Assembly: GCA_041306075.1 (NCBI GenBank)
Contig: JBFYKH010000027.1
Coordinates: forward strand, 4,226 to 68,225
From: Candidatus Altiarchaeota archaeon
Lineage (GTDB): Archaea; Altiarchaeota; Altiarchaeia; IMC4; SCGC-AAA252-I15
Direction of reading: 5' to 3'
Length of the DNA stretch: 64,000 bases
Below are positions 10,848 to 57,993 of the stretch, piece after piece (the first letter of the stretch is position 1; every line of letters begins with the position of its first letter). Position numbers and translations under genes: made by a program. The notes beneath the pieces were generated by a model. The model was not told the origin of the DNA. It saw nothing but the letters and a program-made list of their open reading frames with translations, and searched no databases.

Positions 10848-12395
10848 ATGCTTCCCGGGCGCGGTTTCATGGGGTTTGGCGGCAATCCCCTTGATAGCCG
10901 GAAGCTCATCGTCCTCATCGCGCTCGCGGCGTTGGCTGCCAGGCTCACGCTCGCGCCCATGCACATAGACTACGGCCGCACCGTGGCGGATGTTCCCAGG
11001 GGTTACGAGTACTGTCGCGTGTCCGACACGCTGCCGTTCGACTTCTACGGCTACGTGTGCCCGGCACAGCGGATGCTCGCGGGCAAGAGCGTCTACGCCA
11101 ACTATTCGATACATCGGGACGGCTACCGGGGATTCCCGTACCCACCCTACCATCCCCTCGCCATGGCTGCGGTCATCAGCCTCTTCGGCCCAGACTTCAT
11201 GTGGATGAAGGTTCCGTCGGCGCTCTTCGACGCGGGAATCGTCGTCCTCGTGTTCCTCATCGCCGAGAGGCTGTTCGACACAAGGCGCGGCAACGTCGCC
11301 GCCCTGGCCTACGCGTTCTCGTACAACTTCCTCATCAACTCCGGCGCCTACGGGAACGACGACCACTATTTCATGTTCTTCGTGATGGCTGGCGTGTATT
11401 TCCTCATCGCTGGGAGGCTGCCATTGAGCTCCGTATCGATGGCTGGTGCCCTCGCGTTCAAGGTCAGCGCCCTACTCTTCCTGCCGCCGATGGCTTTTTA
11501 TATCTGGAGGAGCCGCGGCCTGAAGGCGGTCTTCGCCTACAATGCGCTGGCCATCGTTGTCACGGGAGCCCTCATAGCCCCGTTCTTCGCGTCCGAGGGC
11601 CAGGCCGTCCTGAACCCGTACAAACCCGGTGAGGGCATGCAGATAGACGGCTACGGTGTACTGAACGTCATCAGGCTGACTTACGGCCTCCCCTACCACG
11701 CCGTTCACAGGGAATTGCTCCTCAGGCACAACGACCCCGCCGACCCGATGACGTACGGGGGGACGCATCCGTTCCAAAGGCTCCTGAGGCTCCTTGAGCT
11801 CCCGTTCAACGCCATCGGCTTCCTGATTGCGGCCGTCTACGTGCTGCGTTACAGGATGGCGTCCGCGGAACGGGAGCTCGCCAGGAACTCGTTCGTCTTC
11901 ACACTGGCGATGATGGCCTTCTCTAAGGCGTTCTACGAGCAATATTTCCTGTGGCTGACGCCCTTCCTCATCATCCTTTTCGCGGAGAAGGCGAGGGGAA
12001 TCGGCCGCCTCGAGGCCGCGGGGATGGCGCTGGTGTACGCGGCCTGCCTAGTCCAGGCGGGCGTGTGGACGACGCTCCTGTACAGGCCGTTCGCGGAGCA
12101 TGCCTGGCTTTGGGCCGCCGCGCTTCTTGCCGTGGCGGGCAGCTGCATGATGTACCGGGTCTTCGGCAACGGCCGGTGGCGGACGATGTCGGCGCTGGCT
12201 CTCATCAGCGTATACTCCAACTTTGCGATGAGCCTGCCGTTCATCGTCTTCCATCCGCTGGTGGCAGGTTACATAGGCCTCGATGCGCTCAGGCAGCTCA
12301 CGTTCTACGTCGGCAACTACGTCGCGGGGATTTTCACGCTGTGCATGATGTATGTCACGGCGGGACAGCTGCGCGGGGAAGAGGGGGGGGCATGA
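10848..12395 (+). CDS. polytopic GT-C-fold glycosyltransferase (PMT/ArnT/DUF2029-like)
   Basis: 515 aa with ~11-13 hydrophobic segments and loop motifs typical of the GT39/83/87 superfamily; first gene of the glycosylation island. Confidence 0.5.
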   Translation: MLPGRGFMGFGGNPLDSRKLIVLIALAALAARLTLAPMHIDYGRTVADVPRGYEYCRVSDTLPFDFYGYVCPAQRMLAGKSVYANYSIHRDGYRGFPYPPYHPLAMAAVISLFGPDFMWMKVPSALFDAGIVVLVFLIAERLFDTRRGNVAALAYAFSYNFLINSGAYGNDDHYFMFFVMAGVYFLIAGRLPLSSVSMAGALAFKVSALLFLPPMAFYIWRSRGLKAVFAYNALAIVVTGALIAPFFASEGQAVLNPYKPGEGMQIDGYGVLNVIRLTYGLPYHAVHRELLLRHNDPADPMTYGGTHPFQRLLRLLELPFNAIGFLIAAVYVLRYRMASAERELARNSFVFTLAMMAFSKAFYEQYFLWLTPFLIILFAEKARGIGRLEAAGMALVYAACLVQAGVWTTLLYRPFAEHAWLWAAALLAVAGSCMMYRVFGNGRWRTMSALALISVYSNFAMSLPFIVFHPLVAGYIGLDALRQLTFYVGNYVAGIFTLCMMYVTAGQLRGEEGGA

Positions 12396-26876: not shown

Positions 26877-26948
26877 GCGACCGTAGTGTAGTGGCTATCA
26901 CTCCAGATTGCCAATCTGGTGACTCGGGTTCGAATCCCGACGGTCGCA
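26877..26948 (+). tRNA. tRNA-Gly (anticodon GCC), intronless
   Basis: GCGACCG-TA-GTGTAGTGGCTATCAC-T-CCAGA-TTGCCAA-TCTGG-TGAC-TCGGG-TTCGAAT-CCCGA-CGGTCGC-A; canonical cloverleaf with 4-nt variable loop; CCA not encoded. Confidence 0.9.
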
Positions 26949-27672: not shown

Positions 27673-28398
27673 ATGACGATGAGGAAGTTGAGGGGGCAGC
27701 CGCTGCTTTCCCCGCCCGGCCCGGATTTGGTGCCTGAGTGGCTGAGGGTGACGCCAGAGGACAGGGAATGCATGAGAGGGACGCTTGAGACGTATAGGAC
27801 GATGGACGGCCTCGACTGGGCGTTGGCGGAGTTGCACTGCCATATGCGGCTTATTGGCGAGACGCAGACCGTGACGGATGAGGATAAGAGGGGGTTTACG
27901 AGCCAGATGGAATCGTATAGGACGGACCGGGACGGCTGGGGTGTGGCCTTGATGCAGTATTCCATGCGGCAGCTCGGGGTGGCGGAAGCGGTAACTGAGC
28001 AGGATAGGAGGCTCATGAGGCGTGAGTTGGAGGCGGACAGGACAGGTCACAAGGGCGGAGAGCTTGCCTGGATGCACTATACTATGCGGCAGCTCGGGGT
28101 GACGGAGGCGGTAACCGGCGAGGACAGGCAGGACATGAAACAGCAGTTGGGCGGATACAGGACGGACCACGACGGCGCGGGAGTCGCCAGGATGCACTAT
28201 TATATGCGGCAGATTGGGGAGGGGGAGGCGGTGACGGGCCAGGACCGCATCGACATGAGGCATTCCCTGGAGGCGTTTAGGTCGAGCCCGGACGGCCGGG
28301 AGATGGCCTGGATGCACCACGTCCTCCGCTCCCTGGAGCCGGACGGCGGGAGGCAGGCGCAAGCCGGGATGCCGCCTTTGAAATCGTTCAGGAGGTAA
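27673..28398 (+). CDS. RP family member 1: novel ~40-aa tandem helical-repeat protein with conserved N- and C-terminal caps
   Basis: MTMRKLRGQPLLSPPG... then 4.5 repeats (..DGxxxAxMHYxMRQLGVxEAVTxEDRxxMxxxLxxYRT..) ... GMPPLKSFRR; paralogous to five other genes in the window. Confidence 0.6.
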   Translation: MTMRKLRGQPLLSPPGPDLVPEWLRVTPEDRECMRGTLETYRTMDGLDWALAELHCHMRLIGETQTVTDEDKRGFTSQMESYRTDRDGWGVALMQYSMRQLGVAEAVTEQDRRLMRRELEADRTGHKGGELAWMHYTMRQLGVTEAVTGEDRQDMKQQLGGYRTDHDGAGVARMHYYMRQIGEGEAVTGQDRIDMRHSLEAFRSSPDGREMAWMHHVLRSLEPDGGRQAQAGMPPLKSFRR

Positions 28399-30152: not shown

Positions 30153-30353
30153 ATGGGAAGGATAAAGCAGATTTTCCTGAAAAGGGTCGCTGTGAAGGCC
30201 ATGAGGGAGTATCCGACCTCGTTCGGGCCGGAGTTCCAGGACAACAAGAGGAAGATTCACGCCTTCACCGACGCCACCAGCAAGAGCATGAGGAACAAGA
30301 TCGCGGGCTACATCACCAAGAAGGTGAAGCAGAACGCGAAGAAGAAGGACTAG
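30153..30353 (+). CDS. rps17e: 30S ribosomal protein S17e
   Basis: MGRIKQIFLKRVAVKAMREYPTSFGPEFQDNKRKIHAFTDATSKSMRNKIAGYITKKV, strongly eS17-like; TATA gtttataagggg ~25 nt upstream (leaderless). Confidence 0.85.
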   Translation: MGRIKQIFLKRVAVKAMREYPTSFGPEFQDNKRKIHAFTDATSKSMRNKIAGYITKKVKQNAKKKD

Positions 30354-31129
30354 ATTCTGTAGCAGGCTCCGCTCTGGGGGCACGGCCGGCATCTTTCCGG
30401 ATTTCCGTGCGGGCAGACGTCCGGTATTTGGCCGTCGAGTATCGCCTCCACGCCGTCTCTCGCCTTGAGGGTCGCCTCGCGGAGGCTCTCGGTGAAGGGC
30501 ACGGGCTGTCTCTTGGCGTGGCGGACGAAGTCCATGAGGCCGTACCCCGCCTCCGTCCCAGAAGATTCCTCGACCAGCATCCCGTAAGAGCACAGCTGAA
30601 TCCGGTCCTCGGTCCACGACGATGCCGGCTGGCCTCTCGTCTTCACGTCCACGGGGACCAGGGCGCCGTGCCACATTATCTTGTCTACGACGCCGCTGAT
30701 CCGCAGGGTCTCCGAGGAGAGCCGGCAGTCGACCTCTAGCGGGGTAAGGTAGTCGACAGCCTCCTCGAAACCCATGTCCTCGGCCATCGCCTCGATCTCT
30801 CCCGCCAGGTTCGCGATTTCGAGTGCCGCTTCGCCGGCTATGCGCGGAAGGTGCGCGCCGTATCCCGTCCGCCACTGCCCCCGGAACGTATGAGGCGCAT
30901 CAGCGATTATCGACTTGAGTTCGGCGGCGAACGCGGCCTGTGCCTCCTCGACGGAGCCGACTGCTGGCAGGAGCTTGGACTGCCTGAGCGACAGCTCCCT
31001 CCGCACCATGTGGCCCACCCTTGCCGCGTCCAGTTCCGCTGTCCGCTCCTCCTCCGCCTTGAGGACGATGGCGAGGTATGCCTGGCGGGGGCAGTAGAGG
31101 AATGCCCCGATGTCGCAGACGCGTATCAT
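30350..31129 (-). CDS. Cas4-like/DUF83 PD-(D/E)xK nuclease with Fe-S cysteine cluster (no CRISPR locus nearby)
   Basis: N-terminus MIRVCDIGAFLYCPRQAYL (Cas4-type first Cys), PVDVKT (ExK-like catalytic motif), C-terminal CPHGNPERCRPCPQSGAC. Confidence 0.55.
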   Translation of the reverse strand: MIRVCDIGAFLYCPRQAYLAIVLKAEEERTAELDAARVGHMVRRELSLRQSKLLPAVGSVEEAQAAFAAELKSIIADAPHTFRGQWRTGYGAHLPRIAGEAALEIANLAGEIEAMAEDMGFEEAVDYLTPLEVDCRLSSETLRISGVVDKIMWHGALVPVDVKTRGQPASSWTEDRIQLCSYGMLVEESSGTEAGYGLMDFVRHAKRQPVPFTESLREATLKARDGVEAILDGQIPDVCPHGNPERCRPCPQSGACYRI

Positions 31130-31847: not shown

Positions 31848-31922
31848 AGCGGGGTTGAGCAGTCAGGAGTGCTCGTCGGGCTCATAACCCGAAGGTCGGT
31901 AGTTCAAATCTACCCCCCGCTA
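31848..31922 (+). tRNA. initiator tRNA-Met (anticodon CAU) with archaeal A1:U72 pair
   Basis: AGCGGGG-TT-GAGC-AGTCAGGAGT-GCTC-G-TCGGG-CTCATAA-CCCGA-AGGTC-GGTAG-TTCAAAT-CTACC-CCCCGCT-A; three G:C pairs at the bottom of the anticodon stem and A1:U72 are initiator hallmarks. Confidence 0.85.
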
Positions 31923-39783: not shown

Positions 39784-40515
39784 TCATCGCGCGAACCTCC
39801 TGAGAGGGGGGAGGGGGATGGCGTCGTCCCCCTGCCGCTCCAGCTGGAGTATCCTCCGGAGCCAGTTGTGGTCCTCGGCCAACTCGATGCCGCGGCCTCC
39901 GAGCCGCGCCTTCTCGGGCTCCGCCGACATGAGCCGCCAGTCCTCTTGCGAGAGCTCCGTCTCCACGCCGACGCTCCGCATGTTGTAGTGGAGGAGGAGT
40001 ATGCCGCGGCCGTAGCCCTTCGCCCGGTCGCTGGCGAGCTGCCCGGCCATGGCCTTACGGTCCTTCCCCGCGGCCTCGGCGTCCACGCCGAGCTCCGCCA
40101 GCCACCGGTGCATCTGCGCGATATTGTAGCCGGGATTCTTCGTGGAACGCAGCGAATCCAATGCCGAGAGCATGAGCCGGGCATCGTCCGCGGATGGTTT
40201 CCCGGCTAGGCCGACATGTTTCAAGTCGGCTAGCATGCCGGCGAGCGGGAAGCCTTCGCCGCGCGAGCGGTACCCGCCTGTGCACTCGGCGAACATCCTC
40301 CCGTCCCCTTCGGCTTTTGGGGCCTCGTGCCCCATCTCCGCCATGCATCGGAGAATCTTGGCCGCGCCGATGCCGTACCCGTCCTTCCTGCATCCGGCGA
40401 GGTTCTCCTCTACGGCGAGCTGGTCGTCCTGGGTGAACTCCAGGGCCTGGAACCTGAACGAGCCTGGCGGGTTCATGAGGGGCTGCATCCGGAAGCCTGC
40501 GAGCCTGACTGTCAT
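39784..40515 (-). CDS. RP family member 2 (last gene of 3-gene array)
   Basis: MTVRLAGFRMQPLMNPPG ... repeats (..LLLHYNMRSVGVETELSQEDWRLM..) ... IPLPPLRRFAR; start overlaps stop of member 3 (ATGA). Confidence 0.6.
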   Translation of the reverse strand: MTVRLAGFRMQPLMNPPGSFRFQALEFTQDDQLAVEENLAGCRKDGYGIGAAKILRCMAEMGHEAPKAEGDGRMFAECTGGYRSRGEGFPLAGMLADLKHVGLAGKPSADDARLMLSALDSLRSTKNPGYNIAQMHRWLAELGVDAEAAGKDRKAMAGQLASDRAKGYGRGILLLHYNMRSVGVETELSQEDWRLMSAEPEKARLGGRGIELAEDHNWLRRILQLERQGDDAIPLPPLRRFAR

Positions 40516-41276
40516 CGCCCATACCTCTTGAGGCCCGGCAGCGGGTGGCCGGCAGCCTCATCAACCCCCGGGTCCGCCCTCAACGTCCCCTGCAGGTAGT
40601 ATAGGAGCCCGACGACGATGAGGCCGTCTCCCTGCCGCCGCCTCTCCTCCAGTTCGCCGCGTATAAGCCCCAGGTCCGCTTCCGTCATCTCCGGCCTGTG
40701 GCCGAGCCCCCTGAGGGCCCAGTGAGTCCAGTTCAGGCTGTACGCGTCCCCCATCCTGCGCGACTCCTCAAGATGCGCCATCGTGAACGCGAGCCCGTCC
40801 TTGCCTAATGCTTCGTTGACTCCGAGGCCGCTGGCGTACACATGGGCGAGCGCCGTCTGCCCCCTCTGAACGAAATGGTTCCTCATCCCCAGGAAGCGCC
40901 GCGCCGCCGCCTTCTCCTCGCCCGACAGTTCGACGCCGATGCCGAGGTTGCGCATGTGCCAGGCGTACTGGAGGAGGCGGACAGGAGTCTGCTCGGCCGC
41001 CTTCCGTATGACCTCAAAGTCATCCACCGACCTCCGGACGTCCTCCTTCCCCGTGGGGACGGAGATGCCGACGCTGATTGCCCGGTCTAGGAGGGGGGCG
41101 TAATCTCCGCCTGCGGCCACACGCCCCGTCCCCGAGTCGGCCCTGAGATTATCGACTGCCGCCTCGATAATCTCCCTGTCAGACTGCGACGTCCGAGCCC
41201 ACTCCGTCAGGGAGTCGTCGAGCCTAGGTGGCTCAAGGAGGGGCTGACCCCTCAGGCCCTTAAGCCTGGGAGTCAT
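40512..41276 (-). CDS. RP family member 3
   Basis: MTPRLKGLRGQPLLEPP ... HPLPGLKRYGR; ATGA overlaps on both sides. Confidence 0.6.
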   Translation of the reverse strand: MTPRLKGLRGQPLLEPPRLDDSLTEWARTSQSDREIIEAAVDNLRADSGTGRVAAGGDYAPLLDRAISVGISVPTGKEDVRRSVDDFEVIRKAAEQTPVRLLQYAWHMRNLGIGVELSGEEKAAARRFLGMRNHFVQRGQTALAHVYASGLGVNEALGKDGLAFTMAHLEESRRMGDAYSLNWTHWALRGLGHRPEMTEADLGLIRGELEERRRQGDGLIVVGLLYYLQGTLRADPGVDEAAGHPLPGLKRYGR

Positions 41277-42004
41277 CTTTGGAACCTCTTCAGCCCCGGA
41301 AAGGGAGGCGCATCGCGAGCCCTGGGCTCTGGTAAAGTGTCCTTGAGGTGGTGAAGCATCGCCGCCACCGTCCAGCCGTCTCCGTGCTCCCTAGCGTAGT
41401 CCAGGGAGAACCTGGCGGCATGCAGGTCCTTTTCCGTGAATTCGCATCCCATCCCCAGCCGCTTCATCAGGTAGTGCATCTCCGCTATGGATTCTCCGCT
41501 GGCCGCGCCGACGCCCTCGCCCCTAGCCTTGGAGAGCTTGCATGCGATTATGGCCCGGTCAGCGGCTTCCACACCCGCCTTGCCGGTCAGAATCTTCCTT
41601 GCGTCCAGCAGGTTGGCGAGGAACCAGCCGTCCCCCGCCTGGCGCGCGGACAACACCCGGCCGTCCAGCGTCTTAAGGACCTTCGCCCCATGGGGGCTGC
41701 CGTCCAGGCCGACGCCCTTCATCTTCGCGAGCACGAGGGGCTTGAATTCCCCGGAGCCGGCCGCATCGTCCGAAAGGAGCCCCCGCATCAAGGCGAGGTC
41801 AGAGTCCGTCACCTCCTCCGGGCTGCCGATGCCCCGGAGGTGGCGGTGGAGGGCCGTCAACTCCATGGCGTGCCCGTCCTTACGGGCGTAGTCGAGAGAC
41901 CTTTTGATGAGCTGCATGTCAGATTCCGCGGCGACCCGCCAGCCCTCGTACTCGCCTGGCTCCGTGAGGAGAGGCTGGGCCCTGAGCTTCCGGAGTGCGG
42001 GCAT
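41273..42004 (-). CDS. RP family member 4 (first gene of 3-gene array)
   Basis: MPALRKLRAQPLLTEPG ... IAEMHYLMKRLGMGCEFTEKD ... PPFPGLKRFQR. Confidence 0.6.
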   Translation of the reverse strand: MPALRKLRAQPLLTEPGEYEGWRVAAESDMQLIKRSLDYARKDGHAMELTALHRHLRGIGSPEEVTDSDLALMRGLLSDDAAGSGEFKPLVLAKMKGVGLDGSPHGAKVLKTLDGRVLSARQAGDGWFLANLLDARKILTGKAGVEAADRAIIACKLSKARGEGVGAASGESIAEMHYLMKRLGMGCEFTEKDLHAARFSLDYAREHGDGWTVAAMLHHLKDTLPEPRARDAPPFPGLKRFQR

Positions 42005-42034: not shown

Positions 42035-43174
42035 TCAGGCGGTGAGGTATTCCAGCTCCTCGTCCTCGAGGCGGAAGCGCTCCTGAAGCCCGCCCGGGTC
42101 GACCTTCCCTTTCGAAAGGAGCGTCCGGTAGAGGGGTATGTAGTCCCTGGCAAAGGACTTTGCGGACGCGTGCAATTCCGGCCCCATCTTCCCTGCGATG
42201 GACTTCTCGAGGTTGCGGTCCCCCTTCGTCCTGCCCATCGCGGCGAAGAAGCCCGGGAACATGTACTGGGTGAAGTTGATTTTCGCCGGCCGCATCACGT
42301 TCACCCCCGCCGTCATCAGCGCGTTCGCGTACCTGAGGAAACCCCAGTGCTGCCTGCGCATTATCCGGCCTAGGAAGACGTCGGCGCGGGAGAGGCTCCC
42401 GTACGCGCCGGCGATGGCCTCCCTGTCGTTGTAGAGCCTTGGCGTGTTCTCCTCCACCCACCAGATTATGTCCCTCGGCTGCTCGCTCAGGCCCCAGGTG
42501 GACTCCACCACCTCCCTGAGGTCGCGGCCGCCGAAGATGATGCTGAGCGCCCGGTATATGTCGCCGCCCCTGTCGCGCTCCGCCAGGACGCCTTCCATGT
42601 CCCGCTCGGACACGTTCTTCTTGCCTTGGCAGAGTGTCTCGAGGTCCGAGAGCGCCGCCCTCACGTCGCCGCCCGCGTTCTTCGCTATCTTTTCCAGGAC
42701 CGGCTTCTCCACCCGGACGCCCTCGCTTTCCGCCACCGACTGCATGTGCTTCACGAGCGACGCTGGCAGCGGCCTCCTGAGCTGCAGGAGCTGGCACTTC
42801 CGCTTCAGGGTCGCGAGCCTCTTGTTGGAGGGGTCGTCCGTCGTCAGGATGAGAGGGTTCTTCGCACCCTCGACGAGGGCGCCGACCGACTTGATGTCCT
42901 TCACCGACTCCACGCCCTCTATGAGAAGCATCCTCCTGCCGCCGAAGAGGCTGCCTGTGTTCGCCGCAGCCTCCGACCGCTTGGCGTCGCCGCCGTCGGA
43001 CTCCACGACCTCCCAACCCCGCTCCGCCGCCAGGAGGCGGGCGAGCAGCGTCTTGCCCGTGCCCGTGGGGCCGGCTATGATGAGGGGCCTGCCGTCCCAC
43101 TTCCTCGCCTCCTCCACGGCCGCCTTCCCGATGAATCCGTCAAGGCTCCCGGGCCGGTGCTTGAGCTGCCACAT
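42035..43174 (-). CDS. rfcL: replication factor C large subunit-like AAA+ clamp loader
   Basis: MWQLKHRPGSLDGFIG...LIIAGPTGTGKT (Walker A), PLILTTDD (sensor 1), GGDVRAALSDLETL (RFC GDxR motif); the Walker B region LLIEGVE is atypical. Confidence 0.55.
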   Translation of the reverse strand: MWQLKHRPGSLDGFIGKAAVEEARKWDGRPLIIAGPTGTGKTLLARLLAAERGWEVVESDGGDAKRSEAAANTGSLFGGRRMLLIEGVESVKDIKSVGALVEGAKNPLILTTDDPSNKRLATLKRKCQLLQLRRPLPASLVKHMQSVAESEGVRVEKPVLEKIAKNAGGDVRAALSDLETLCQGKKNVSERDMEGVLAERDRGGDIYRALSIIFGGRDLREVVESTWGLSEQPRDIIWWVEENTPRLYNDREAIAGAYGSLSRADVFLGRIMRRQHWGFLRYANALMTAGVNVMRPAKINFTQYMFPGFFAAMGRTKGDRNLEKSIAGKMGPELHASAKSFARDYIPLYRTLLSKGKVDPGGLQERFRLEDEELEYLTA

Positions 43175-43210: not shown

Positions 43211-44404
43211 ATGATGTCAGGAAAGGTCGTGAGGGACCCCATACACGGCAACATAGGCCTGGAGAGCCCGTACCTGGAGCTCGTGGACGCGCGGGAGTTC
43301 CAGAGGCTCAGGGGGATAAAGCAGAACGGCCTCTGCTACCTCGTCTACCCGGCTATGAACTCCACACGCTTTGAGCACTCGCTCGGCGCATACCATCTCG
43401 GCGGACTCGTGTCCGGTAAGCTCGCGCTGAAGGACAGGGACCAGCGCCTCCTCAGGGCGGCATGCCTCCTACACGACATCGGGCACGGCCCCTTCAGCCA
43501 CACGTTCGACGGGCTCTTCCAGGAGCACGGCCTCGACCACGAGGACGAGTCCTGCAGGCTCATCGCGAAGACCGGCCTGTCGGACGTGCTCGAGGACGCG
43601 GGGATATCGCGGGCGAGGGTGACCGAGCTCATCAAGGGGGAGGGCAGGCTCGGGAAGCTCCTGTCCAGCGAGGTGGACGTCGACAAGATGGACTACCTCG
43701 TACGGGACGCCTACTACGCCGGCGTCGCCTACGGGGTCACGGACGTGGAGAGGCTCCTCGACAGCATAGTCCTCGACGGCGACGACGTCGTGGTCGAGTA
43801 CGGGGGCCTCGAGGCCGCTGAGTCGCTCCTCATCAACAGGAACCTGATGTACCAGACCGTCTACAGGCACCACACGAAGAGGATTGCGGAGGCTATGCTC
43901 CGGCACGCCGTCGACCGGCTCGTGGAGTCCGGGACCCGGGTGCAGGACATCTTCAGGATGGACGACACGGAGCTCGTCCACCTCATGCGCTCAAGCCGCG
44001 GGTACGTGAAGGACATGATGGAGAGGATTGAGGGCAGGACGCTCTTCAAGACAGTCTTCACCGAGCCGCTCGCCCAGCTCACCGAGGACGGCCGCGACGA
44101 GATAGTCGACAACAGGGCCGCGATAGAGGAGAAAATCGCCAGGGACCTGAAGGTGAAGCGGGGCTACCTGATGCTCGACTACCCGGAGGCGAGCATGAGC
44201 GAGTACAGGGTGAAGGTGAAGACCCCCCGGGGCCTCAAGAGCATAGGGGAGGTCTCCGCGCTCGCCAAAAGCCTGGAGTCCAGCGAGACCGAGAAGCTCG
44301 CGCTCAGCATATACGCGCGGCCCGAGGACAGGGGCAAGTTCAGGAGCTTCAGGCCCGAACGGTACTTCGCGTACACGCAGATGAAGATAAGCGGCTACGT
44401 CTGA
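43211..44404 (+). CDS. HD-domain phosphohydrolase (dGTPase/SAMHD1-like)
   Basis: VRDPIHGNIGL...EFQRLRGIKQNGLCYLVYPAMNSTRFEHSLGAYHL...LLHDIGHGPFSH...VDKMDYLVRD. Confidence 0.65.
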   Translation: MMSGKVVRDPIHGNIGLESPYLELVDAREFQRLRGIKQNGLCYLVYPAMNSTRFEHSLGAYHLGGLVSGKLALKDRDQRLLRAACLLHDIGHGPFSHTFDGLFQEHGLDHEDESCRLIAKTGLSDVLEDAGISRARVTELIKGEGRLGKLLSSEVDVDKMDYLVRDAYYAGVAYGVTDVERLLDSIVLDGDDVVVEYGGLEAAESLLINRNLMYQTVYRHHTKRIAEAMLRHAVDRLVESGTRVQDIFRMDDTELVHLMRSSRGYVKDMMERIEGRTLFKTVFTEPLAQLTEDGRDEIVDNRAAIEEKIARDLKVKRGYLMLDYPEASMSEYRVKVKTPRGLKSIGEVSALAKSLESSETEKLALSIYARPEDRGKFRSFRPERYFAYTQMKISGYV

Positions 44405-44958
44405 AACAGCTTCGAGGCCAGGGACTGTATCTCCGCCTGGACCTCCCCCTCGGGGCGGGAGGAGTCGACGTGGGTCATCCGCCTGAACTTCCCGTACTCC
44501 ACCTTCACCTTCCTGAGGAAGTCCTCGCGCTCGAATATCTCGTTAGACTTCGCCCTCTTCGCGGCCTCGGCCGGGTCCACGTCCAGGTAGACGACGAGGT
44601 CCGGGGAGAGCGCGAACATGTTCATCCCCATCAGCCACGCCCTGTCCACGCCCTGCGCGGACTGGTACGCTATCGTCGAATAGTAGTATCTCTCGCAGAC
44701 GACGTCCCTGCCGGCCTCGGCGGCCGAGCGTATCTCGTTCACATGCTCCACCCGGTCCGCGGTGAACAGGAGGGCGAGCGTCTTCGGGTCCGCCTTCACG
44801 CCGCCGGATAGTATCTCGCGTATCAGCTGGCCTATCCTTCCCTTCGTCGGCTCCGCGGTCAATAGGACGTCGCGGCCCTTCTCCTTCAGCCAGTCGGAAA
44901 GCAGCCTCGCATGCGTCGACTTCCCGCACCCGTCGAGGCCCTCGAGGACGACGAACAT
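44395..44958 (-). CDS. tmk: thymidylate kinase
   Basis: MFVVLEGLDGCGKSTHARLLSDWL (P-loop), AEPT, lid ...RA; the longer ORF start (MLNMFVV) is also possible. Confidence 0.8.
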   Translation of the reverse strand: MFVVLEGLDGCGKSTHARLLSDWLKEKGRDVLLTAEPTKGRIGQLIREILSGGVKADPKTLALLFTADRVEHVNEIRSAAEAGRDVVCERYYYSTIAYQSAQGVDRAWLMGMNMFALSPDLVVYLDVDPAEAAKRAKSNEIFEREDFLRKVKVEYGKFRRMTHVDSSRPEGEVQAEIQSLASKLFQT

Positions 44959-44989
44959 GTTTAACAATCAGCGGGCGATAATTAAAGCG

Positions 44990-45988
44990 ATGATAACGGT
45001 TGACGGCTCCCTCGGGGAGGGCGGAGGCCAGGTCCTGAGGACGGCAGTCGCCTTGAGCGCGGTCTCAGGCGAGCCGGTAAGGGTGTCCGGGATACGCAGA
45101 GGCAGGAGCAACCCGGGCCTCCGGCCCCAGCACCTGAAGGCGGTGGAAGGCGTCGGCCTCCTGTGCGACGCCTCTGTGGAGGGGTTGAGTGCCGGCTCCA
45201 CGGAGGTCGCGTTCGCCCCGGGGGGAATCAGGGGCGGCGCCTTGAGCTTGGACGTCGGCACCGCGGGGTCGGCGACGCTTGTTTTGCAGGCTCTCCTGCC
45301 GGTGGCCCTGTCCGCGCCGGCCGGCGTGGAGCTGACCGTCCGCGGAGGCACGGACGTCAGCGCGAGCCCGACAGCGGACTACTTCAGAAACGTGTTCCTC
45401 GGGAACCTCAGGTCCATGGGATGCGAAATCGAGGCCGAAACCGCATTGAGGGGATTCTACCCGAGGGGCGGCGGGGAGATACGGGTCAGCGTGAAGCCGT
45501 GGAAGAGGGGGAGGAGGGAGTTCCCGGAAAGGGGAGACATAGGGTCCATACGAATCCACAGCATCGCATCAGAGCACCTTAGACTGCAGGAGGTCGCGGA
45601 GAGGCAGGTCAAAGGCTTCCTGAAGGCCGTGTCCCCGCTCCACAGGGTGGACGCCCCCGAACCAGCCTACGTCAAGTCCGAGAGCGTCGGCTCCGCAGTG
45701 ACGGCAGAGGCGCGGTGCGGGGGGACTGTCGTCGGAGCCTGCGTCCTCGGGGAACGCGGACTCAAATCAGAGATGGTCGGGAGGATGGCTGGCGAAAGTC
45801 TGCTCGCCGAGCTCGCCCACGGAGCCCCGATAGACTCCCACATGACAGACCAGATAATCCCGTACCTCGCCATCGCCGGCGGCCGGGTGAGGGCGCCGCC
45901 CTTCACCGGACACGCGAAGACGTGCATCGAAGTCGCCAGGATGTTCGGCTTCGACGTCAGGTTCGAGGAGGGGTTGCTGACGGCCTGA
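44990..45988 (+). CDS. rtcA: RNA 3'-terminal phosphate cyclase
   Basis: MITVDGSLGEGGGQVLRTAVALSAVSGEPVRVSGIRRGRSNPGLRPQHL (RtcA signature); start chosen at the second Met to give the canonical length (333 aa). Confidence 0.8.
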   Translation: MITVDGSLGEGGGQVLRTAVALSAVSGEPVRVSGIRRGRSNPGLRPQHLKAVEGVGLLCDASVEGLSAGSTEVAFAPGGIRGGALSLDVGTAGSATLVLQALLPVALSAPAGVELTVRGGTDVSASPTADYFRNVFLGNLRSMGCEIEAETALRGFYPRGGGEIRVSVKPWKRGRREFPERGDIGSIRIHSIASEHLRLQEVAERQVKGFLKAVSPLHRVDAPEPAYVKSESVGSAVTAEARCGGTVVGACVLGERGLKSEMVGRMAGESLLAELAHGAPIDSHMTDQIIPYLAIAGGRVRAPPFTGHAKTCIEVARMFGFDVRFEEGLLTA

Positions 45989-45994
45989 ACCCGA

Positions 45995-46693
45995 CTATGC
46001 CTTAAACCTCTTCAGCGGAGGTACGGACTCCTGCCGCACATCCTCCCGCCCGGGCATGAGCCCGTTCACGTAGAGCAGCATGGAGGACAGGAAATCCCTG
46101 GACCCGGCCATCCTGTGCCGCTCGATATCGTCCCTGAACAGTATGAGGTCCTCGGCCGTCGGCTTAGCCTCCAATCCGAGCCCCTTCAGGTGGTACATGG
46201 CCCTGGCGAGCATCATCCCGTTGCCGTCGGCTCTTGCATGGCCCACCACCTCCGGGAAGACCCTCCTCGTCTCATCGTCCAATGCTACCGGCTGGCCTAA
46301 TGCCGCCATCTGGTGGTATCTGACGATGGCCTGGAAGCCGTCCGGGTCGCTGAACACATGCCTCCTCATCGCCTCGGCGTCTTCTTCGGGTATCTTCTGG
46401 GGCCTGCCCATCTCCTCCAGGCAGTAGTACTTCGTCAGGAGCCCAACCGGATTTTGGCCCCGCCGGTCCCCGGGGATTGACGCGACGACAGTCTTGACGT
46501 GCCTCTCATCGTATTGGAGGCCGAGCGCGTGCAGGCTGTGGAGCAGCCTCGCCAGGGTATGTGAGTCGGCCTCGTCCAAGCCCCTGGATAATAGCTCAGC
46601 GTCCTTCTCGGTGGGCCTCATCCAGTCGTACTCCAGCCGTTTCGGTGCAGACAGAAGCGGCGGCTCCTTGAAGCCTGTGATTCTGACCTTCAT
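45995..46693 (-). CDS. RP family member 5 (second gene of 2-gene array)
   Basis: MKVRITGFKEPPLLSAP ... MLARAMYHLKGLGLEAKPTAED ... VPPLKRFKA; ATGA overlap with member 6. Confidence 0.55.
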   Translation of the reverse strand: MKVRITGFKEPPLLSAPKRLEYDWMRPTEKDAELLSRGLDEADSHTLARLLHSLHALGLQYDERHVKTVVASIPGDRRGQNPVGLLTKYYCLEEMGRPQKIPEEDAEAMRRHVFSDPDGFQAIVRYHQMAALGQPVALDDETRRVFPEVVGHARADGNGMMLARAMYHLKGLGLEAKPTAEDLILFRDDIERHRMAGSRDFLSSMLLYVNGLMPGREDVRQESVPPLKRFKA

Positions 46694-47400
46694 CCCCGGT
46701 ACCTCTTCAGGGGCGGAAGAGGAGGCGCCTTTCCCGCATCCTGAGCGGGCTTCAGGATGTTCGCGAGGTGGTTGTGGATTTGCGCGACTTTATCCCAGTC
46801 GTCGTCCAAGCGGAGGCTTTCAAGGGTCCTTCTCATCAAATCCATGTCCTCCCGCAGAAACGGCTCCGGCGAGCCCGCCTCCCTCAGGCTGTGGTGGAGT
46901 ATCGCCAGTTCCAAGCCGCTATCCGACGCCCTGGACTTCGCAAGTTCCCGCCTCATCGCCGCTACGTCCTGCGGGCGCGGAGCGTACGGCAGAGCGACTT
47001 CCCTGGCCAGAAGGTACATCTGCGCCATGGCGACCGGAGTCTGCGAGGATATCCCGTCGAACAGCGCCTTAAGACGAGCGTCTTGCGACGGCGTCCTCCT
47101 CGCTCCGAGGCCGACCCGGGCGGCGATGCCGGATAATATCAGGAGCGCCTCGCCCTCGCGGGTGGACTTCGCCAGGCGTCTTATCTTCGACTCCTCGTCG
47201 GCCGTCGGTTGACACGGCAGGCCCATGCACTTCAGCGTGTAGAGTGCGGCCGCTTGTGTGAGCACGTCGTCCCCGCCCCGGGCCCGCCTCAGGGACTCCT
47301 CTATCTCGGGCATGTCCCCGGAGGGTATGCGGTAGCCTCCCCTCTCGGGCGGCGGCTCCAGGAGCGGCTGCCCGCGGACGTCCCTGATTTTCACCGGCAT
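46690..47400 (-). CDS. RP family member 6 (first gene of 2-gene array)
   Basis: MPVKIRDVRGQPLLEPPP ... LELAILHHSLREAGSPEPFLRED ... PPLPPLKRYRG. Confidence 0.6.
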   Translation of the reverse strand: MPVKIRDVRGQPLLEPPPERGGYRIPSGDMPEIEESLRRARGGDDVLTQAAALYTLKCMGLPCQPTADEESKIRRLAKSTREGEALLILSGIAARVGLGARRTPSQDARLKALFDGISSQTPVAMAQMYLLAREVALPYAPRPQDVAAMRRELAKSRASDSGLELAILHHSLREAGSPEPFLREDMDLMRRTLESLRLDDDWDKVAQIHNHLANILKPAQDAGKAPPLPPLKRYRG

Positions 47401-47472
47401 CGTACCACATAAACTATCCGGAGCCCGCGGATTATAAGCGATATTTAACGCGAAACAGGGATTATCTTACCT

Positions 47473-48366
47473 ATGGACGACAAGGAGCTCGAATCCTACA
47501 GAAAGGCCGGGAAAATCGCGAAGGAGACCCTGGAGTGGGCCTCCAAGCTCGTGAAGCCCGGGGTGAAGCTCCTTGAAGTCTGCGAGAGGATAGAGGGCAG
47601 GCTCGAGAGGGAGAAGGCGGGCAGCGCCTTCCCGGTCAACATATCCCTGAACGACGCCGCAGCCCATTACACGCCAAGGAGCAGGGACGAGGCCGTGTTC
47701 GGCGCCGAGGACGTGGTGAAGCTTGACATAGGAGTCCACGTGGACGGCTACATAGCGGACACCGCGACGACCATCGACCTGTCAGGGAAGCATACGGGCA
47801 TGCTGGAGGCGAACCGGAGGGCCCTGGACGAGGCGATAGCCATCGCCAGGCCGGGCGTCTCAGTCAGTTCCATAGGCGAGACTATACAGGCCGTCCTCCT
47901 GGAGGCCGGATACAGGCCGATAGAGAACCTCACAGGCCACGAGCTGAAGCAGTACGACCTCCACGCCGGGCTCTCGGTGCCGAACATCAAGGTCCCGTAC
48001 GACTGGAGGCTCAGGGAGGGGATGGTCCTCGCCTTCGAGCCCTTCGCCACCGACGGCGCCGGCCACGTAATAGAGTCCCGCGGAGCCGAGATATACTCGC
48101 TGCTGTCCGAGAGGCCGGTGAGGATGAGGGAGGCCAGGATGCTCCTGGAACTCGTAGGCGACAGGGGGGAGATGCCCTTCGCGGTCAGGTGGTACGCGGA
48201 CAAGATTCCGCCCCTGAAGATAGGGCTCGTCCTCAACCAGCTGACGCAGCAGGGGATACTCAAGGCGTACCCGCCGCTCCACGACAAAGGCAAGGGCACG
48301 GTCAGCCAGTTCGAGCACACGCTGATAATCACGAAAGACGGCTGCGAAGTGACGACCGGCTCATGA
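47473..48366 (+). CDS. map: methionine aminopeptidase, type 2 (archaeal)
   Basis: MDDKELESYRKAGKIAKE...DIGVHVDGYIADTA...HGIG-like; 297 aa typical of archaeal MetAP2; TATA gattataagcg upstream. Confidence 0.85.
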   Translation: MDDKELESYRKAGKIAKETLEWASKLVKPGVKLLEVCERIEGRLEREKAGSAFPVNISLNDAAAHYTPRSRDEAVFGAEDVVKLDIGVHVDGYIADTATTIDLSGKHTGMLEANRRALDEAIAIARPGVSVSSIGETIQAVLLEAGYRPIENLTGHELKQYDLHAGLSVPNIKVPYDWRLREGMVLAFEPFATDGAGHVIESRGAEIYSLLSERPVRMREARMLLELVGDRGEMPFAVRWYADKIPPLKIGLVLNQLTQQGILKAYPPLHDKGKGTVSQFEHTLIITKDGCEVTTGS

Positions 48367-53686: not shown

Positions 53687-54868
53687 ATGGCCCTGGTTGA
53701 GAATGAAGAAGTGAACGAGCTGGTTCTTAACGAAGTACGCAGTTGGGTTGATGACGGCATCATCACAGAAGAGCAGGCATCCAGGATATCTGAAAGATTA
53801 AGGTGTAAGGGAAAAAGCTCCACGTTGACAAGCTCTCGTTTTATCACCATCTTGTCGGTCATGGGCGCCCTGCTTCTGGGCCTTGGAGTAATCCTGTTTT
53901 TCGCCGCCAATTGGCAGGCAATCCCCAAATTTGTAAAGGTGCTGATGATATTAAGTTTAATTGCAGCCACCTACCTCATCGGCTATTACCTGAAATATGT
54001 GAAAAAAGACTATCCAATGGTGGGCAGCGCCCTCATCTTCCTTGGCTGTTTGCTCTATGGTGCGGGAATCTGGCTTATCGCCCAGATGTACAATATGAAC
54101 GCACATTACCCAAACAGCATACTCCTATGGGTCGCCGGCATACTCCCGATGGCCTATCTTGGCTCTTCTTCAGCCATACTCGTATTATCCCTGTTGTTGA
54201 TGTCGTTTTGGGTCACGTCCGAAGTTACCTTCCTGACATATGCGACAAGATACTCCTACCTCAGCCTGATAATGCTCTACGGAGCCGTATTGCTTGCAAT
54301 AGGCAACAGACATAGGCTCGGTAGGTACTCGTTTTTTAGCGGCTATTATGCGGTACTCGGGATGATACTCATCCACGTCTCTGCATTCCCGCTGACATTC
54401 TCATTCACCCATGCGGGGAGCGCTTTCGAGCCAGTCCCAGAAACCCTTGCACTCATAGAGATTCTAGTCATGGTTTTGGCAGCAGGCTTAACATTCCCTT
54501 ACGAAGCGATTAAATCACGGAATATCGACGTCTCCTTTACAGACGTTATAGGAGTTGTGCTGATCTGCCTTCTTGCCATATCCGTGACCGCGGCCCCGTC
54601 ACTTTTTTCAAACTATATTATTTCGAACACCTTATACTTCCTTCTGCTCGTTGGCTCAGTGTATATGGGAGTTACAAAACAGTCCTCGGGGATTATTAAC
54701 ATTGGTGTTGTTTTCTTCTGCCTTGACGTTATTGCCAGATACTTCGGCTTATTCTGGGAGTTGTTGCCCACGTCGCTATTCTTCCTCTGCGGGGGTGCCC
54801 TGGTACTCGGCGGCGGGATAGCACTGGAGAGGAAGAGGCGCGGCATACTAAGAGCCCTAAAAAAATGA
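53687..54868 (+). CDS. DUF2157-family polytopic membrane protein
   Basis: N-terminal soluble segment (VRSWVDDGIITEEQASRISE) then ~10 TM; paired with a downstream GDYXXLXY-domain gene, as is typical for this family. Confidence 0.5.
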   Translation: MALVENEEVNELVLNEVRSWVDDGIITEEQASRISERLRCKGKSSTLTSSRFITILSVMGALLLGLGVILFFAANWQAIPKFVKVLMILSLIAATYLIGYYLKYVKKDYPMVGSALIFLGCLLYGAGIWLIAQMYNMNAHYPNSILLWVAGILPMAYLGSSSAILVLSLLLMSFWVTSEVTFLTYATRYSYLSLIMLYGAVLLAIGNRHRLGRYSFFSGYYAVLGMILIHVSAFPLTFSFTHAGSAFEPVPETLALIEILVMVLAAGLTFPYEAIKSRNIDVSFTDVIGVVLICLLAISVTAAPSLFSNYIISNTLYFLLLVGSVYMGVTKQSSGIINIGVVFFCLDVIARYFGLFWELLPTSLFFLCGGALVLGGGIALERKRRGILRALKK

Positions 54869-55386
54869 AAAAGAGACGCTTCATCAGCATAGTCGTATTT
54901 CAGATGACGCTATTACTGTTGATGATAGCCTACAAACAGTATTCAGTCTATACCGGAGAAACGATACGCCTCCACCTCCAGCGGCCTGTTGACCCGCGGA
55001 GCGTGTTCTCGGGCAATTATGTCATTCTCTCCTATGATATTTCGACCTTAAACCAAAGCTTGGCCCGGGGGGAATCGTTCAATTATGGGGATACGGTTTA
55101 CGTGGCATTATCAAAACAGGGGGAGTACTGGGTTCCCGCATCGATTGAAAAGATTCCGCCAAAAAAAATCTTTATCAAAGGGACAGTAGCGAGTTCATGG
55201 GGAGGCAGTATACAGGCAAGGTATGACATAGAGCAGTTCTATATCCCCGACTCCCGGGCGAAGGAGATGGAAGAACGACTGAGGATTGCTGAACGATCTG
55301 GAGACGCCTATGCCGAGGTTGTAATAGACGGCAACGGGAATGCCATTGTGTCAAAGGTATTCCTAGGGGTGGAGGAACTGGTATAG
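54865..55386 (+). CDS. GDYXXLXY-domain protein (membrane-anchored)
   Basis: N-terminal TM; FSGNYVILSYDIS contains the GDYxxLxY-like motif (GNYVILSY); ATGA overlap with DUF2157 gene. Confidence 0.55.
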   Translation: MKKRRFISIVVFQMTLLLLMIAYKQYSVYTGETIRLHLQRPVDPRSVFSGNYVILSYDISTLNQSLARGESFNYGDTVYVALSKQGEYWVPASIEKIPPKKIFIKGTVASSWGGSIQARYDIEQFYIPDSRAKEMEERLRIAERSGDAYAEVVIDGNGNAIVSKVFLGVEELV

Positions 55387-55749
55387 GACCTAGTAGGACA
55401 TACACGGACAGGATGCTGTCACCTGAGTGGCTGAAGTTTGGACACAATACATGCTAAATTTCTTATGACCTGAGTAAAAAGGTTTGTCAGGGACATGAAC
55501 CACAACTTCAACAGAAGAGGCCTTTGCCCCTTCCGGCCTGAAGAGCCTGCGGCCCTCCAATCAAGCCACGCCAACGACACGTCAGTAAAAAGGCGGCTTA
55601 TAGAGGGTTGTTTTTCGAGTTGCCGGTTTGTTTATAGACCGATACTATCAGTAAATAGAGGGATTATGGGTACTTCCGTTAGAAGAGACATACAGATATT
55701 ACAAAACCTGGTGAAAATACGTCAATGCAAAGCCCAATATGGTATACGC

Positions 55750-57993
55750 TCATTCAATCTTTGGTTCGCTTATGGTTATCTTTTGTCCTGCTCGCACGTA
55801 TAGGACATCTTTGTCCTTGAACCTATTCAAAAGCTTTTCCTCCTCGGATTCCAGTTTGGGTATGGAAAAGCCGAGGATTATTATGTCTGCTAAAGCTGAT
55901 CTCTCATCAATCAAGGCCTCGAGGGTTTTTTCTCCTTCGTCGTATTGTATCTCCTGGATTATGTCCTTTGAAAGCGGCAGTTCCTCTGATTCGATGAGTG
56001 CGGTTAGTTTCTGGAGGTGGCTGTCGAGATGATTCTTGTGGAATGTGGCGAATATATCTATTGATGAGCCCTTCCATTCAGGGTGCTCGCTCAGGATATA
56101 TGCGAGCATTGTCATCAACTTAGCGTTTCGGTAGTCCTCAGGATTAAGCCAAACATGTATCCTGGTCTTATAGCCAAAGCGTTTCTCGGATGGACGTAGT
56201 ATGCAGATGTTGTAGCTCATCATGGCTGCAAGGCGGCTGGCGTCTATGATGTTCCGTATACTGTCCGGGTCTTCGGCATCATATTCCACAAGTAAGCCGT
56301 TGTTTTCCATCCCGGATACGCCAGGCATCTGGATAATATCTTCCACTGCAGACTTGAATGACGGGGCGATGATTGTGTCTGCGTATATGGATGATTTGCT
56401 CGCAGCCCCGATTTGCACCAGCCCCTCAAGGTCCTTCTTAGACCTCCGTTTAGTCTCCTGGGAAAGCTCGCCTTTGATGTAGTGTATGTAGGTCCCAAAG
56501 CCATAGTAGTGTGAGAACCATCTTAGGAGGTCGAACAGCGCAAGTCGTTTGAAAGATGTGGATGATAGACCGATAAACGAGGGTCTCCATCCCGTAAATG
56601 ATAGGTCCATCTGGTAGTGTTGGATGATCACCCGGAGCTTGCGAGATAGCTGGAAGAAAGCACCTGTGACCATATCCGAGAGGTCAAACTCATCGGAGTG
56701 ATTTTTTTTGATGTTGAGGTATATCCCGCCTATCGCTATCAGTGAGAGGGTTGCGTAGAATGGAGACATCTGAAACATAATAAAGAAGCATAGTACAGCC
56801 CCCGTAAGGGAGAGATACCATTTTGTCCTGAATGTGGGTTGGTAGGACAGATTTCCTGCGAAATGCTGTAGGAAACTCACAAGGCATACGGCGCCGTAGG
56901 TTACCATGAAGAACATGCTGATTATCTGCGCTACGAAATCTACGGTGCCTATGAATACGAAGAATAAGACGATTATGGCTGTCACGAATGTCGCGTTTGC
57001 CGGTTCATTCGCTTCTCCGAAACCCTTGCTTAGATAGTGGTTCAGTGTCTTTGACGGAAAAACCCTATCCTTTGCCAATGCCTGCATAGTGCGTGGAGCT
57101 ATGAGGAGTGAACCGACAGCGGAAGACAATGTCGCACAAGCCAGACCAACCAGGATGAGCGGACCCCACAATGCGATCTTACCCATGATTAGCTGGTCAG
57201 CCGATAAATCCCCAGGTGACGCCGAAAGAGCTAACTTTATCACCACAAGGAAGTATACGACCATTCCAACCAAAGTAGCAGAGACCGTCCCTAATGGAAT
57301 CGATTTTGCCGGGTTTTTCAAGTCGCCAGACAAACCCACTCCTGCGGTGAGGCCGGTGAATGCAGGGAACACTATCGCAAACACCAGGAAGAAACTGGCT
57401 GGATTGTCGATTGTGGAAAAAAAGTTGATGTGTTGAATCCCATCCACTGGCGAACCTAGTAAGAATGAGGCAAGAGATATTCCCATAATGGAGACGATAA
57501 CCCATAAAGCATTAATGCCGATATTGGCGCCTCTGCGGAGTATCGTATATAGGAGCAGGATTGTGGCGGGAATACTCACCATCCTAAGGTCGGGGGTAAT
57601 ACCTGTGCTGGTTTGGATGAAATCAAATAGTGGAGTGAACGCTTGTGAAAATGCAATCATATAAAACGAGACCGAAATCGCCTGCGCAGCGTACAGGGAT
57701 ATGCCGATAGTGCCACCTATCATTGTCCCAAAAGAACGGCTGATGATATAATATTCCCCGCCACCGCGCACTTTCAGATTAGTCGCAATCTCAGAGACGG
57801 CAAGGGCGGTAGGTATAGTTATTGCATGGCCGAGCAGGATTACTAGGAATGCACCGCCCAACCCAAGATTAGCTACCAGATAACCGAACCTGAGGAAGAC
57901 TATCGCCCCCAATATGGTGCTTATCGCTGCCAGGAATACCGGGGCAGTACCGAAATTATGCCCTTTACGTTGGTCATCCATATAGCCTCTCAC
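55750..57993 (-). CDS. APC-superfamily transporter with C-terminal cytoplasmic domain (cation-chloride cotransporter SLC12-like)
   Basis: About 12 TM with amino-acid-permease-like motifs (GGGEYYIISRSFG, FPAFTGLTAG), then a ~300-aa hydrophilic C-terminal domain typical of CCC transporters. Confidence 0.65.
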   Translation of the reverse strand: MRGYMDDQRKGHNFGTAPVFLAAISTILGAIVFLRFGYLVANLGLGGAFLVILLGHAITIPTALAVSEIATNLKVRGGGEYYIISRSFGTMIGGTIGISLYAAQAISVSFYMIAFSQAFTPLFDFIQTSTGITPDLRMVSIPATILLLYTILRRGANIGINALWVIVSIMGISLASFLLGSPVDGIQHINFFSTIDNPASFFLVFAIVFPAFTGLTAGVGLSGDLKNPAKSIPLGTVSATLVGMVVYFLVVIKLALSASPGDLSADQLIMGKIALWGPLILVGLACATLSSAVGSLLIAPRTMQALAKDRVFPSKTLNHYLSKGFGEANEPANATFVTAIIVLFFVFIGTVDFVAQIISMFFMVTYGAVCLVSFLQHFAGNLSYQPTFRTKWYLSLTGAVLCFFIMFQMSPFYATLSLIAIGGIYLNIKKNHSDEFDLSDMVTGAFFQLSRKLRVIIQHYQMDLSFTGWRPSFIGLSSTSFKRLALFDLLRWFSHYYGFGTYIHYIKGELSQETKRRSKKDLEGLVQIGAASKSSIYADTIIAPSFKSAVEDIIQMPGVSGMENNGLLVEYDAEDPDSIRNIIDASRLAAMMSYNICILRPSEKRFGYKTRIHVWLNPEDYRNAKLMTMLAYILSEHPEWKGSSIDIFATFHKNHLDSHLQKLTALIESEELPLSKDIIQEIQYDEGEKTLEALIDERSALADIIILGFSIPKLESEEEKLLNRFKDKDVLYVRAGQKITISEPKIE

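Follow-up and report, generated by a model that had tools for sequence, protein, structure and literature searches.

An undescribed multigene family of helical-repeat proteins with invariant proline-rich tails in Altiarchaeota-like archaea

Results

The stretch of DNA analysed here (64,000 nucleotides of Candidatus Altiarchaeota archaeon contig JBFYKH010000027.1, referred to as the window) carries two overlapping open reading frames (ORFs), A and B, between the core genes rtcA and map. We conclude that A and B are very likely real genes of an undescribed multigene family of Altiarchaeota-like archaea, encoding soluble proteins of about 240 amino acids (aa) that consist of five repeats flanked by conserved tails. 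The pair is composed as follows.

46690..47400, minus strand: ORF B, 236 aa, first gene of the pair, MPVKIRDVRGQPLL...PPLPPLKRYRG (ORF list)
45995..46693, minus strand: ORF A, 232 aa, second gene of the pair, MKVRITGFKEPPLL...VPPLKRFKA (ORF list)
46690..46693, minus strand: ATGA overlap of the B stop and the A start, probable translational coupling (junction sequence)

The translation of B begins MPVKIRDVRGQPLLEPPP. Its N-terminal tail is MPVKIRDVRGQPLLEPP, and five helical repeats of 40 aa and the C-terminal tail PPLPPLKRYRG follow. A has the N-terminal tail MKVRITGFKEPPLLSAP, then five repeats and the C-terminal tail VPPLKRFKA. At the B/A junction, GGGGATGAAGG (...CGG GGA TGA AGG...), the TGA of B and the ATG of A lie in a common ATGA, and A itself ends in TAG rather than ATGA. 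The original prediction for this DNA had proposed two paralogues overlapping by ATGA, and this was borne out by the ORF list, the junction sequence, tblastn and the hidden Markov model (HMM) of the family, which scores A and B at E = 2.9e-56 each over a full-length alignment. The two genes are probably co-transcribed and translationally coupled.

A homologue of A with 77% identity is present on several independent metagenome contigs, of which L001 is the longest. Gene order on L001 mirrors that of the window: map, genes of 236, 232 and 249 aa, rtcA, tmk, an HD-domain gene, the gene for the RFC large subunit (RFC-L), and genes of 243 and 229 aa. The L001 orthologues of B (71% identity), of A (77%) and of C1, another family member in the window (74%), are intact, and the start, stop and ATGA overlap of A and B are conserved. 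Loss of the frames in close relatives, which the original prediction had considered as a refutation, was not seen in L001. The Nei-Gojobori ratio of nonsynonymous to synonymous substitution rates (dN/dS) between the window and L001 is 0.18 for A, 0.32 for B and 0.22 for C1, compared with 0.10-0.20 for neighbouring core genes. The dN values of the family (0.14-0.20) lie above those of map, HD, RFC, HMGR, tmk and the QueC-like gene (0.04-0.09), and rtcA falls within the family range at 0.145. These values indicate purifying selection together with faster change than in most flanking core genes, rtcA excepted. The core proteins of the window and L001 are mostly 84-93% identical (78% for rtcA). 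Since A and B are both intact on an independent related contig and have low dN/dS, we regard them as real genes. The GC content at third codon positions of the family genes is 0.81-0.87 (0.81-0.82 for A and B), which is near that of neighbouring host genes, and they are therefore not recent imports. Substitutions between orthologues cluster in two places, the 'LG-xxxxx-T..D' loop and the initial turn of the helix after it, and hardly any fall in the tails or in the A..HY.MK.LG helix.

A full HMMER scan of 1.84 billion protein representatives recovered 199 clusters at E <= 1e-3, including 138 at E <= 1e-10. Most of these clusters are about 240 aa long and align end to end. A word-indexed protein search returned at least 4-6 clusters, and the cluster count is therefore taken from the full scan; the narrow pattern EQPLLNPP retrieved three loci from metagenomes. 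Known families did not account for these proteins. For the six members found in the window, no Pfam match was obtained at E <= 1, NCBIfam and PADLOC gave nothing meaningful, and PHROGs gave nothing except one PHROG of unknown function at E = 0.07. Among 77 members, the Pfam scan returned no repeat family at E <= 0.1, just scattered chance matches. The family profile found nothing credible among Protein Data Bank (PDB) sequences, where weak calmodulin-like noise appeared at E >= 0.02; an EF-hand was rejected by inspection, as the 'R..gDG..iA' loop does not match the EF-hand ligand pattern. IMG/VR contained no match to the family pattern used, and literature searches found no description of the family. 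Its taxonomic anchors so far are only metagenome-assembled genomes (MAGs) of Altiarchaeota-like archaea; the single member with an NCBI name, P0143, is from Candidatus Altiarchaeota. This is an undescribed, taxonomically narrow multigene family of helical-repeat proteins, distinguished by its invariant tails and its array genetics.

The median length of complete members is 245 aa (5-95% range, 235-278). The repeat period is exactly 40 aa, in five copies, with the consensus vT..D...M...L...R....G...A..HY.MK.LG.... The N-terminal tail has the consensus M-t-v-K-l-K-x-l-R-e-Q-P-L-L-x-P-P, then x6-W, with '[KR]x[QP]PLLxPP' as its motif. The C-terminal tail reads l.P-x8-10-mPPLKRF, then 0-5 residues, and its motif is 'PPLK[KR][FY]'. 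Column information peaks in these two tails over the whole protein. Of 115 members, 105 have the N-terminal motif xPLLxxP in their first 25 residues, and 105 have the C-terminal motif; A carries KEPPLLSAP and PPLKRFKA, and B carries RGQPLLEPP and PPLKRYRG. Both tails have a common 'P-L-[LK]' core. The isoelectric point (pI) has a family median of 6.8 (range, 5-10). No member has a transmembrane-like segment or a signal peptide, and the family proteins are soluble. The idea that the tails are signal peptides or membrane anchors was ruled out because they lack a hydrophobic segment. A proteasomal HbYX motif was also rejected: the aromatic residue stands at a variable distance from the C-terminus, mostly at -3, and is penultimate in 14 of 105 members.

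AlphaFold2 modelled A from a 77-sequence alignment with a mean predicted local distance difference test score (pLDDT) of 90.8 and a predicted template modelling score of 0.84; a run with six sequences gave a pLDDT of 83. In the model, ten helices form five pairs, and the tails have a pLDDT of 65-73. The fold is thus confidently predicted as a compact all-alpha domain of five repeats. Foldseek searches of the PDB and BFVD returned no significant neighbour, and the PDB gave nothing at E < 0.1. The highest template modelling (TM) scores, 0.43-0.52 at a root-mean-square deviation of 7-9 Å, were obtained with haptocorrin, transcobalamin, intrinsic factor and the thioester domain of alpha-2-macroglobulin. 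Open solenoids (TPR variants, designed helical repeats and 14-3-3) scored 0.14-0.28. The domain probably closes into a toroid-like ring; an open solenoid is the less likely form. We infer ring closure and tail docking solely from the Foldseek TM-scores, the near-fixed repeat number and the intermediate pLDDT of the tails.

The family has four further paralogues in the window, detected by tblastn with A and B, which makes six in total, and there is a relic of a further copy.

41273..42004, minus strand: C1, 243 aa, 30 nt downstream of the RFC large subunit gene on the same strand
40512..41276, minus strand: C2, 254 aa, ATGA overlaps with C1 and C3
39784..40515, minus strand: C3, 243 aa
39752..39787, minus strand: relic of a fourth copy directly after C3, a 12-codon mini-ORF, M-T-P-P-L-K-R-F-K-K-P-stop
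27673..28398, plus strand: F, 241 aa, singleton, HMM score 274 bits

The relic (ATG ACG CCT CCC TTG AAG CGG TTT AAA AAG CCA TGA) has an ATGA overlap on the C3 stop and is a family start fused straight to a family C-terminal tail, with the body deleted. F is the nearest of the members to the family consensus, and C3 has an 83%-identical homologue elsewhere (P0003). The six copies are 21-30% identical to each other. The closest pair is B and C3 (30%); C1, C2 and C3 are 25-28% identical mutually, A and B 23%, and A has 21-26% identity with each of the other copies. The distance of B from the C1-C3 array is therefore no greater than the distances within that array, and that of A exceeds them only marginally. 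The original prediction had taken the A/B array to be an older duplication. These flat identities do not support it; the copies look like equally old paralogues. The closest non-orthologous relatives of each copy are found in other genomes, at similar identity.

The genes around the array are as follows.

47473..48366, plus strand: map (Peptidase_M24; Pfam), divergent from B across a 72-bp spacer
about 44990..45988, plus strand: rtcA (RTC and RTC_insert; Pfam)
44395..44967, minus strand: tmk (Pfam)
42035..43174: RFC-L, next to C1

rtcA and A are convergent, with 6 nt between their stops (45989..45994). The HD-domain gene, RFC large subunit, a CDF transporter and HMG-CoA reductase lie farther away (Pfam). 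It had also been predicted that the array is flanked by core genes (rtcA, tmk and map) and not by an island, and the Pfam assignments and the lack of any compositional sign of an island confirm this. Next to map, a P-type ATPase gene is found in L001 and the CDF transporter gene in the window.

Two short elements precede the coding regions of A and B.

46701..46705, minus strand: GAGGT, Shine-Dalgarno (SD)-like, 7 nt 5' of the ATG of A, a putative role
47432..47438, minus strand: CTTATAA, TATA-box-like, 32-38 nt 5' of the ATG of B, in the divergent spacer between B and map

The GAGGT is encoded by the K-R-Y codons (AAG AGG TAC) of the conserved C-terminal tail of B. The window and L001 share 91% identity over a stretch of 116 nt, made up of the 72-bp spacer plus about 20 flanking coding bases to either side. 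L001 keeps the TATA-like box upstream of B as TTTATAA, and a second AT-rich box that faces map is also kept. Judged by archaeal TATA spacing, the spacer would hold two back-to-back archaeal promoters, one of them giving a B-A transcript with a short leader. The use of C-terminal tail codons as an SD-like site is also seen elsewhere: K-R-F/Y is written AAG AGG T, giving GAGGT, in the C1, C2 and C3 tails and in L001, and F-G-G is written TTC GGA GG, giving GGAGG, in the L088 lineage; in both cases the site precedes the following ATG by about 7-8 nt. In L091 and L092, which are low-GC arrays, these codons form no SD-like site. The possibility that the C-terminal tail is conserved merely as the SD sequence of the next gene was rejected, since terminal and singleton genes retain the motif too, as do low-GC lineages in which its codons yield no SD sequence.

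The arrays differ between close relatives. At the map/rtcA site, three copies are present in L001 and two in the window; at the RFC site, L001 has two copies and a fragment, and the window has three and a relic. The third L001 copy (249 aa, 10696..11445, plus strand) lies between the orthologue of A and rtcA, overlaps the 3' end of rtcA by 11 nt and has F as its best window match, at just about 32% identity. The RFC site of L001 consists of the C1 orthologue, a highly divergent copy of 229 aa and an N-terminal fragment. A synteny comparison of copy number, which the original prediction had suggested, thus revealed variable arrays (3 + 2 in L001, 2 + 3 in the window).

More distant genomes lack the array at this site. 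The closest matches to the MAP protein of the window in the genome collection are Candidatus Altiarchaeota MAGs, at no more than 71% identity. At least one of RFC, HD, rtcA and tmk lies beside map in 8 of the 12 closest of these distant loci (L007-L011, L014, L015), and the core block near map is most complete in L008. No family member was found within 10 kb of map in any of 80 genome loci, and in the closest distant locus, L007, the gap between rtcA and map holds an unrelated ORF of 326 aa. L008 (7019..9942) is the one distant locus with all four genes; their order there is HD-rtcA-tmk-map, compared with HD-tmk-rtcA in the window (43211..45988) and L001; the core block was rearranged at the position of the array. 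The A/B array is therefore an insertion specific to this lineage, within a core block that has undergone local rearrangement, and is not conserved as part of the core. The claim that the family is integrated into the core genome therefore holds for its neighbours. It does not hold for conservation, as copy number is variable and the array is absent near map in the 80 loci.

The A/B array is just one locus of the family. Across contigs, an array may hold anything from 1 to about 10 copies; most neighbouring copies overlap by 4 nt, and fragments and relics occur alongside them. L088 has at least nine copies and an internally deleted relic, and L091 has about ten, including extra-repeat variants and one split copy. 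There are four copies in L087, three and a fragment in L092, three in L093, two in L098, four and one in L100, and one in L101. The 4-nt ATGA overlap also occurs at C1/C2 and C2/C3 and in the arrays of L001, L088, L091, L092, L093, L098 and L100. Where flanks are visible they are core chromosomal: purS/L/Q and PCNA; L21e, Rpo4, IleRS and RFC-S; SMC; CSD and pyruvate kinase; and Thi4 and ferredoxin. The expectation that the family lies among core genes at multiple loci was accordingly confirmed for the window and for other genomes as well (purL/PCNA, L21e/IleRS/RFC-S, SMC and CSD/pyruvate kinase). The extra-repeat variants of L091 are 309-313 aa long (3080..4021 and 4740..5669), its split copy occupies two frames (5570..6382), and L088 has an N-terminal fragment fused to a C-terminal fragment (1507..1892). 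These extra-repeat, split and fused copies indicate that recombination acts between repeats as well as between genes.

Family repeats are also found in larger proteins. P0122 and P0135 (1060 and 1087 aa; L089 4773..7955) carry them as a C-terminal module, preceded by an N-terminal region with an HExxH-like 'HEHTH' string and then HEAT repeats, and no other known domain was found in these two proteins. In P0143 and P0146 (L090 10001..11443), family repeats flank an inserted non-helical domain. The fusion proteins are without canonical tails, and the neighbourhoods of P0122 and P0135 are uninformative.

Discussion

We propose that the proline-rich tails would serve as docking peptides for a shared cellular partner or for the bodies of neighbouring subunits, and that the repeat body, chiefly its fast-changing inter-repeat loops, would give each paralogue its own binding specificity. 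The arrays would evolve by birth and death, as copies duplicate, diverge to about 25% identity, undergo internal deletion or are lost, and each lineage would end with a different repertoire inserted between core genes. The mechanism of docking tails and a variable body, which we infer, is tentative and somewhat less probable than even. Taken as a whole, with the identity of the family and the mechanism blended, we assign the explanation a probability of about 55%. Several points weigh against it. No gene is consistently linked to the arrays among the loci examined, and no partner was found. The ATGA coupling suits an equimolar complex equally well as a repertoire. In addition, a few members (284-313 aa) contain at least six repeats, which speaks against a strictly fixed ring size.

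The equimolar complex is the basis of one rival explanation, in which the paralogues are obligate subunits of a single hetero-oligomer, such as stacked rings or a head-to-tail polymer with the tail of one subunit inserted into the next, and coupling equalises their amounts. The ATGA overlaps at nearly all junctions of all arrays, the SD-like sequences built into C-terminal tail codons and the conservation of both tails with their common core would all fit such a complex. However, the number and identity of copies differ between close relatives (2 versus 3 and 3 versus 2), the extra copies are non-orthologous, and functional-looking singletons (F and L101) exist within a range of 1 to about 10 copies, so that we consider the hetero-oligomer unlikely. 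It is less likely still that the proteins read nucleic acids, each 40-aa repeat recognising one portion of the RNA or DNA bound, as PPR, PUF and TALE proteins do. The repeats are indeed helical hairpins of about 40 aa, and arrays do lie beside genes that handle RNA or DNA (rtcA, RFC-L, PCNA, RFC-S and SMC). The near-neutral pI and a repeat number almost fixed at five are at odds with this idea, as are the absence of profile similarity to PPR, PUF, TPR and HEAT and the location of the most variable positions in loops, not on a helix face. Another rival, that A and B are spurious or decaying frames, draws on the fact that high-GC DNA yields many long ORFs in all six frames. It is refuted by the intact orthologues with dN/dS of 0.18-0.32, the HMM and pLDDT values given above, and the conserved start, stop and ATGA overlap.

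A further rival is a role in immunity or defence. Immunity arrays of polymorphic toxin systems, such as the esaG strings associated with type VII secretion (PMC9484751), consist of diverged tandem paralogues subject to recombination, gain and loss. The family resembles such arrays in its strings of diverged tandem paralogues with gain and loss; it differs in having no toxin or secretion genes nearby, core-gene neighbours, conserved termini and no homology. Immunity- or defence-type cassettes, diversifying in conflict with competitors or viruses like orphan immunity arrays, would account for strongly diverged tandem paralogues, birth-and-death dynamics and relics, as well as for a family dN that is 2-4 times as high as in most adjacent core genes. 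Some arrays also have an AAA_14/DUF4143 ATPase gene or a transposase-like gene within or beside them, which points in this direction too. Nevertheless, no recognisable toxin, Rhs or nuclease domain appears in the gene tables of the loci whose flanks are usable, L001, L088, L092, L093, L098, L100 and L101 (L087 and L091 are almost entirely array), and the same domains are absent from the window genes scanned at about 20-61 kb, save a stand-alone Cas4/PD-(D/E)XK gene near F. Neither PADLOC, PHROGs nor IMG/VR, the latter with the pattern used, gave any hit in support; codon composition is native, and dN/dS is well under 1. Known immunity families do not, to our knowledge, have invariant motifs at their termini. 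We therefore regard a defence role as improbable.

TPR, Sel1-like, PPR and HEAT proteins likewise consist of tandem repeats of about 34-47 residues with two antiparallel helices each, and are typically protein- or RNA-binding scaffolds that often form expanded multigene families. The present family differs from these and from ankyrin repeats in the absence of a profile match, in its repeat consensus and in a repeat number that is nearly fixed at five. It also has two invariant proline-rich terminal motifs, and its TM-scores against open TPR and designed solenoids are as low as stated above (0.14-0.28). The best geometric match is to alpha/alpha toroids, namely the alpha-domains of transcobalamin, haptocorrin and intrinsic factor, the thioester domain of alpha-2-macroglobulin and class II terpene cyclases, with TMq 0.43-0.52 over about 250-285 columns, 9-12% identity and E >= 0.17, which is not significant. 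Toroids are closed rings of helical hairpins, and a closed ring would explain the near-constant number of repeats. Known alpha/alpha toroids have six or more hairpins in 270-400 residues, whereas the family has five.

The tails can also be compared with clamp-binding peptides, which include the archaeal and eukaryotic PIP box and the bacterial beta-clamp motif, such as the N-terminal QL[SP]LPL of Hda. Like these, they are short, terminal and rich in Q, L and P. The canonical PIP box Qxx[LIMV]xx[FYW][FYWL] was rejected as their identity: it occurs in 1 of 115 members, internally there, and not in the tails. Three independent arrays lie no more than two genes from RFC-L (window and L001), PCNA (L093 11974..12705) and RFC-S (L098 9210..10148), and a fourth lies two genes from SMC (L100 5174..8545). 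This proximity was noticed after the fact among about nine informative loci, and it may reflect either a functional link or chance. A far-reaching variant of our proposal, and a long shot drawn from gene neighbourhood, would combine a new closed five-hairpin alpha/alpha fold with tails that dock to PCNA, RFC or SMC, the paralogues being fast-turnover, clamp-associated adaptors. If true, such an adaptor set would be a kind of system undescribed in archaea.

If confirmed, the family would be archaeal 'dark matter': proteins of about 245 aa, confidently foldable, in about 200 clusters, with no annotation and no relatives in sequence or structure. Its genetics are unusual as well, in that tandem paralogues, probably translationally coupled, stand among core informational genes and turn over between close relatives. 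The invariant terminal peptides could be used as baits for the partner and hence offer a direct experimental handle. The body of the protein, nearly always of five repeats, may represent a new closed architecture of helical repeats, of relevance to structural biologists and protein designers. Altiarchaeota are uncultivated, and families of this kind may underlie lineage-specific biology that annotation pipelines now miss.

Other features of the window and related contigs

In the L088 array, an AAA_14/DUF4143 ATPase gene lies inside (1952..3259), and a transposase-like gene with an HTH_32 domain lies at the end. L093 has one such ATPase gene (4241..5497) about 4 kb from its array. In the window, the gene for the Cas4/PD-(D/E)XK nuclease (30350..31129, minus strand) is about 2 kb from F, and no CRISPR array was noted nearby. 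A tRNA gene (26877..26948) is located about 700 bp from F, in a stretch with a GC content of 0.52 compared with about 0.64 elsewhere; this low-GC stretch may be an insertion hot spot. A second tRNA gene is present at 31848..31922 (plus strand), and a stand-alone 5S rRNA gene at 898..1013 (minus strand). The region 53687..57993 has a GC content of 0.47-0.48, compared with about 0.64, and contains genes for DUF2157 and GDYXXLXY membrane proteins and for a 747-aa amino-acid permease; it may be foreign DNA.

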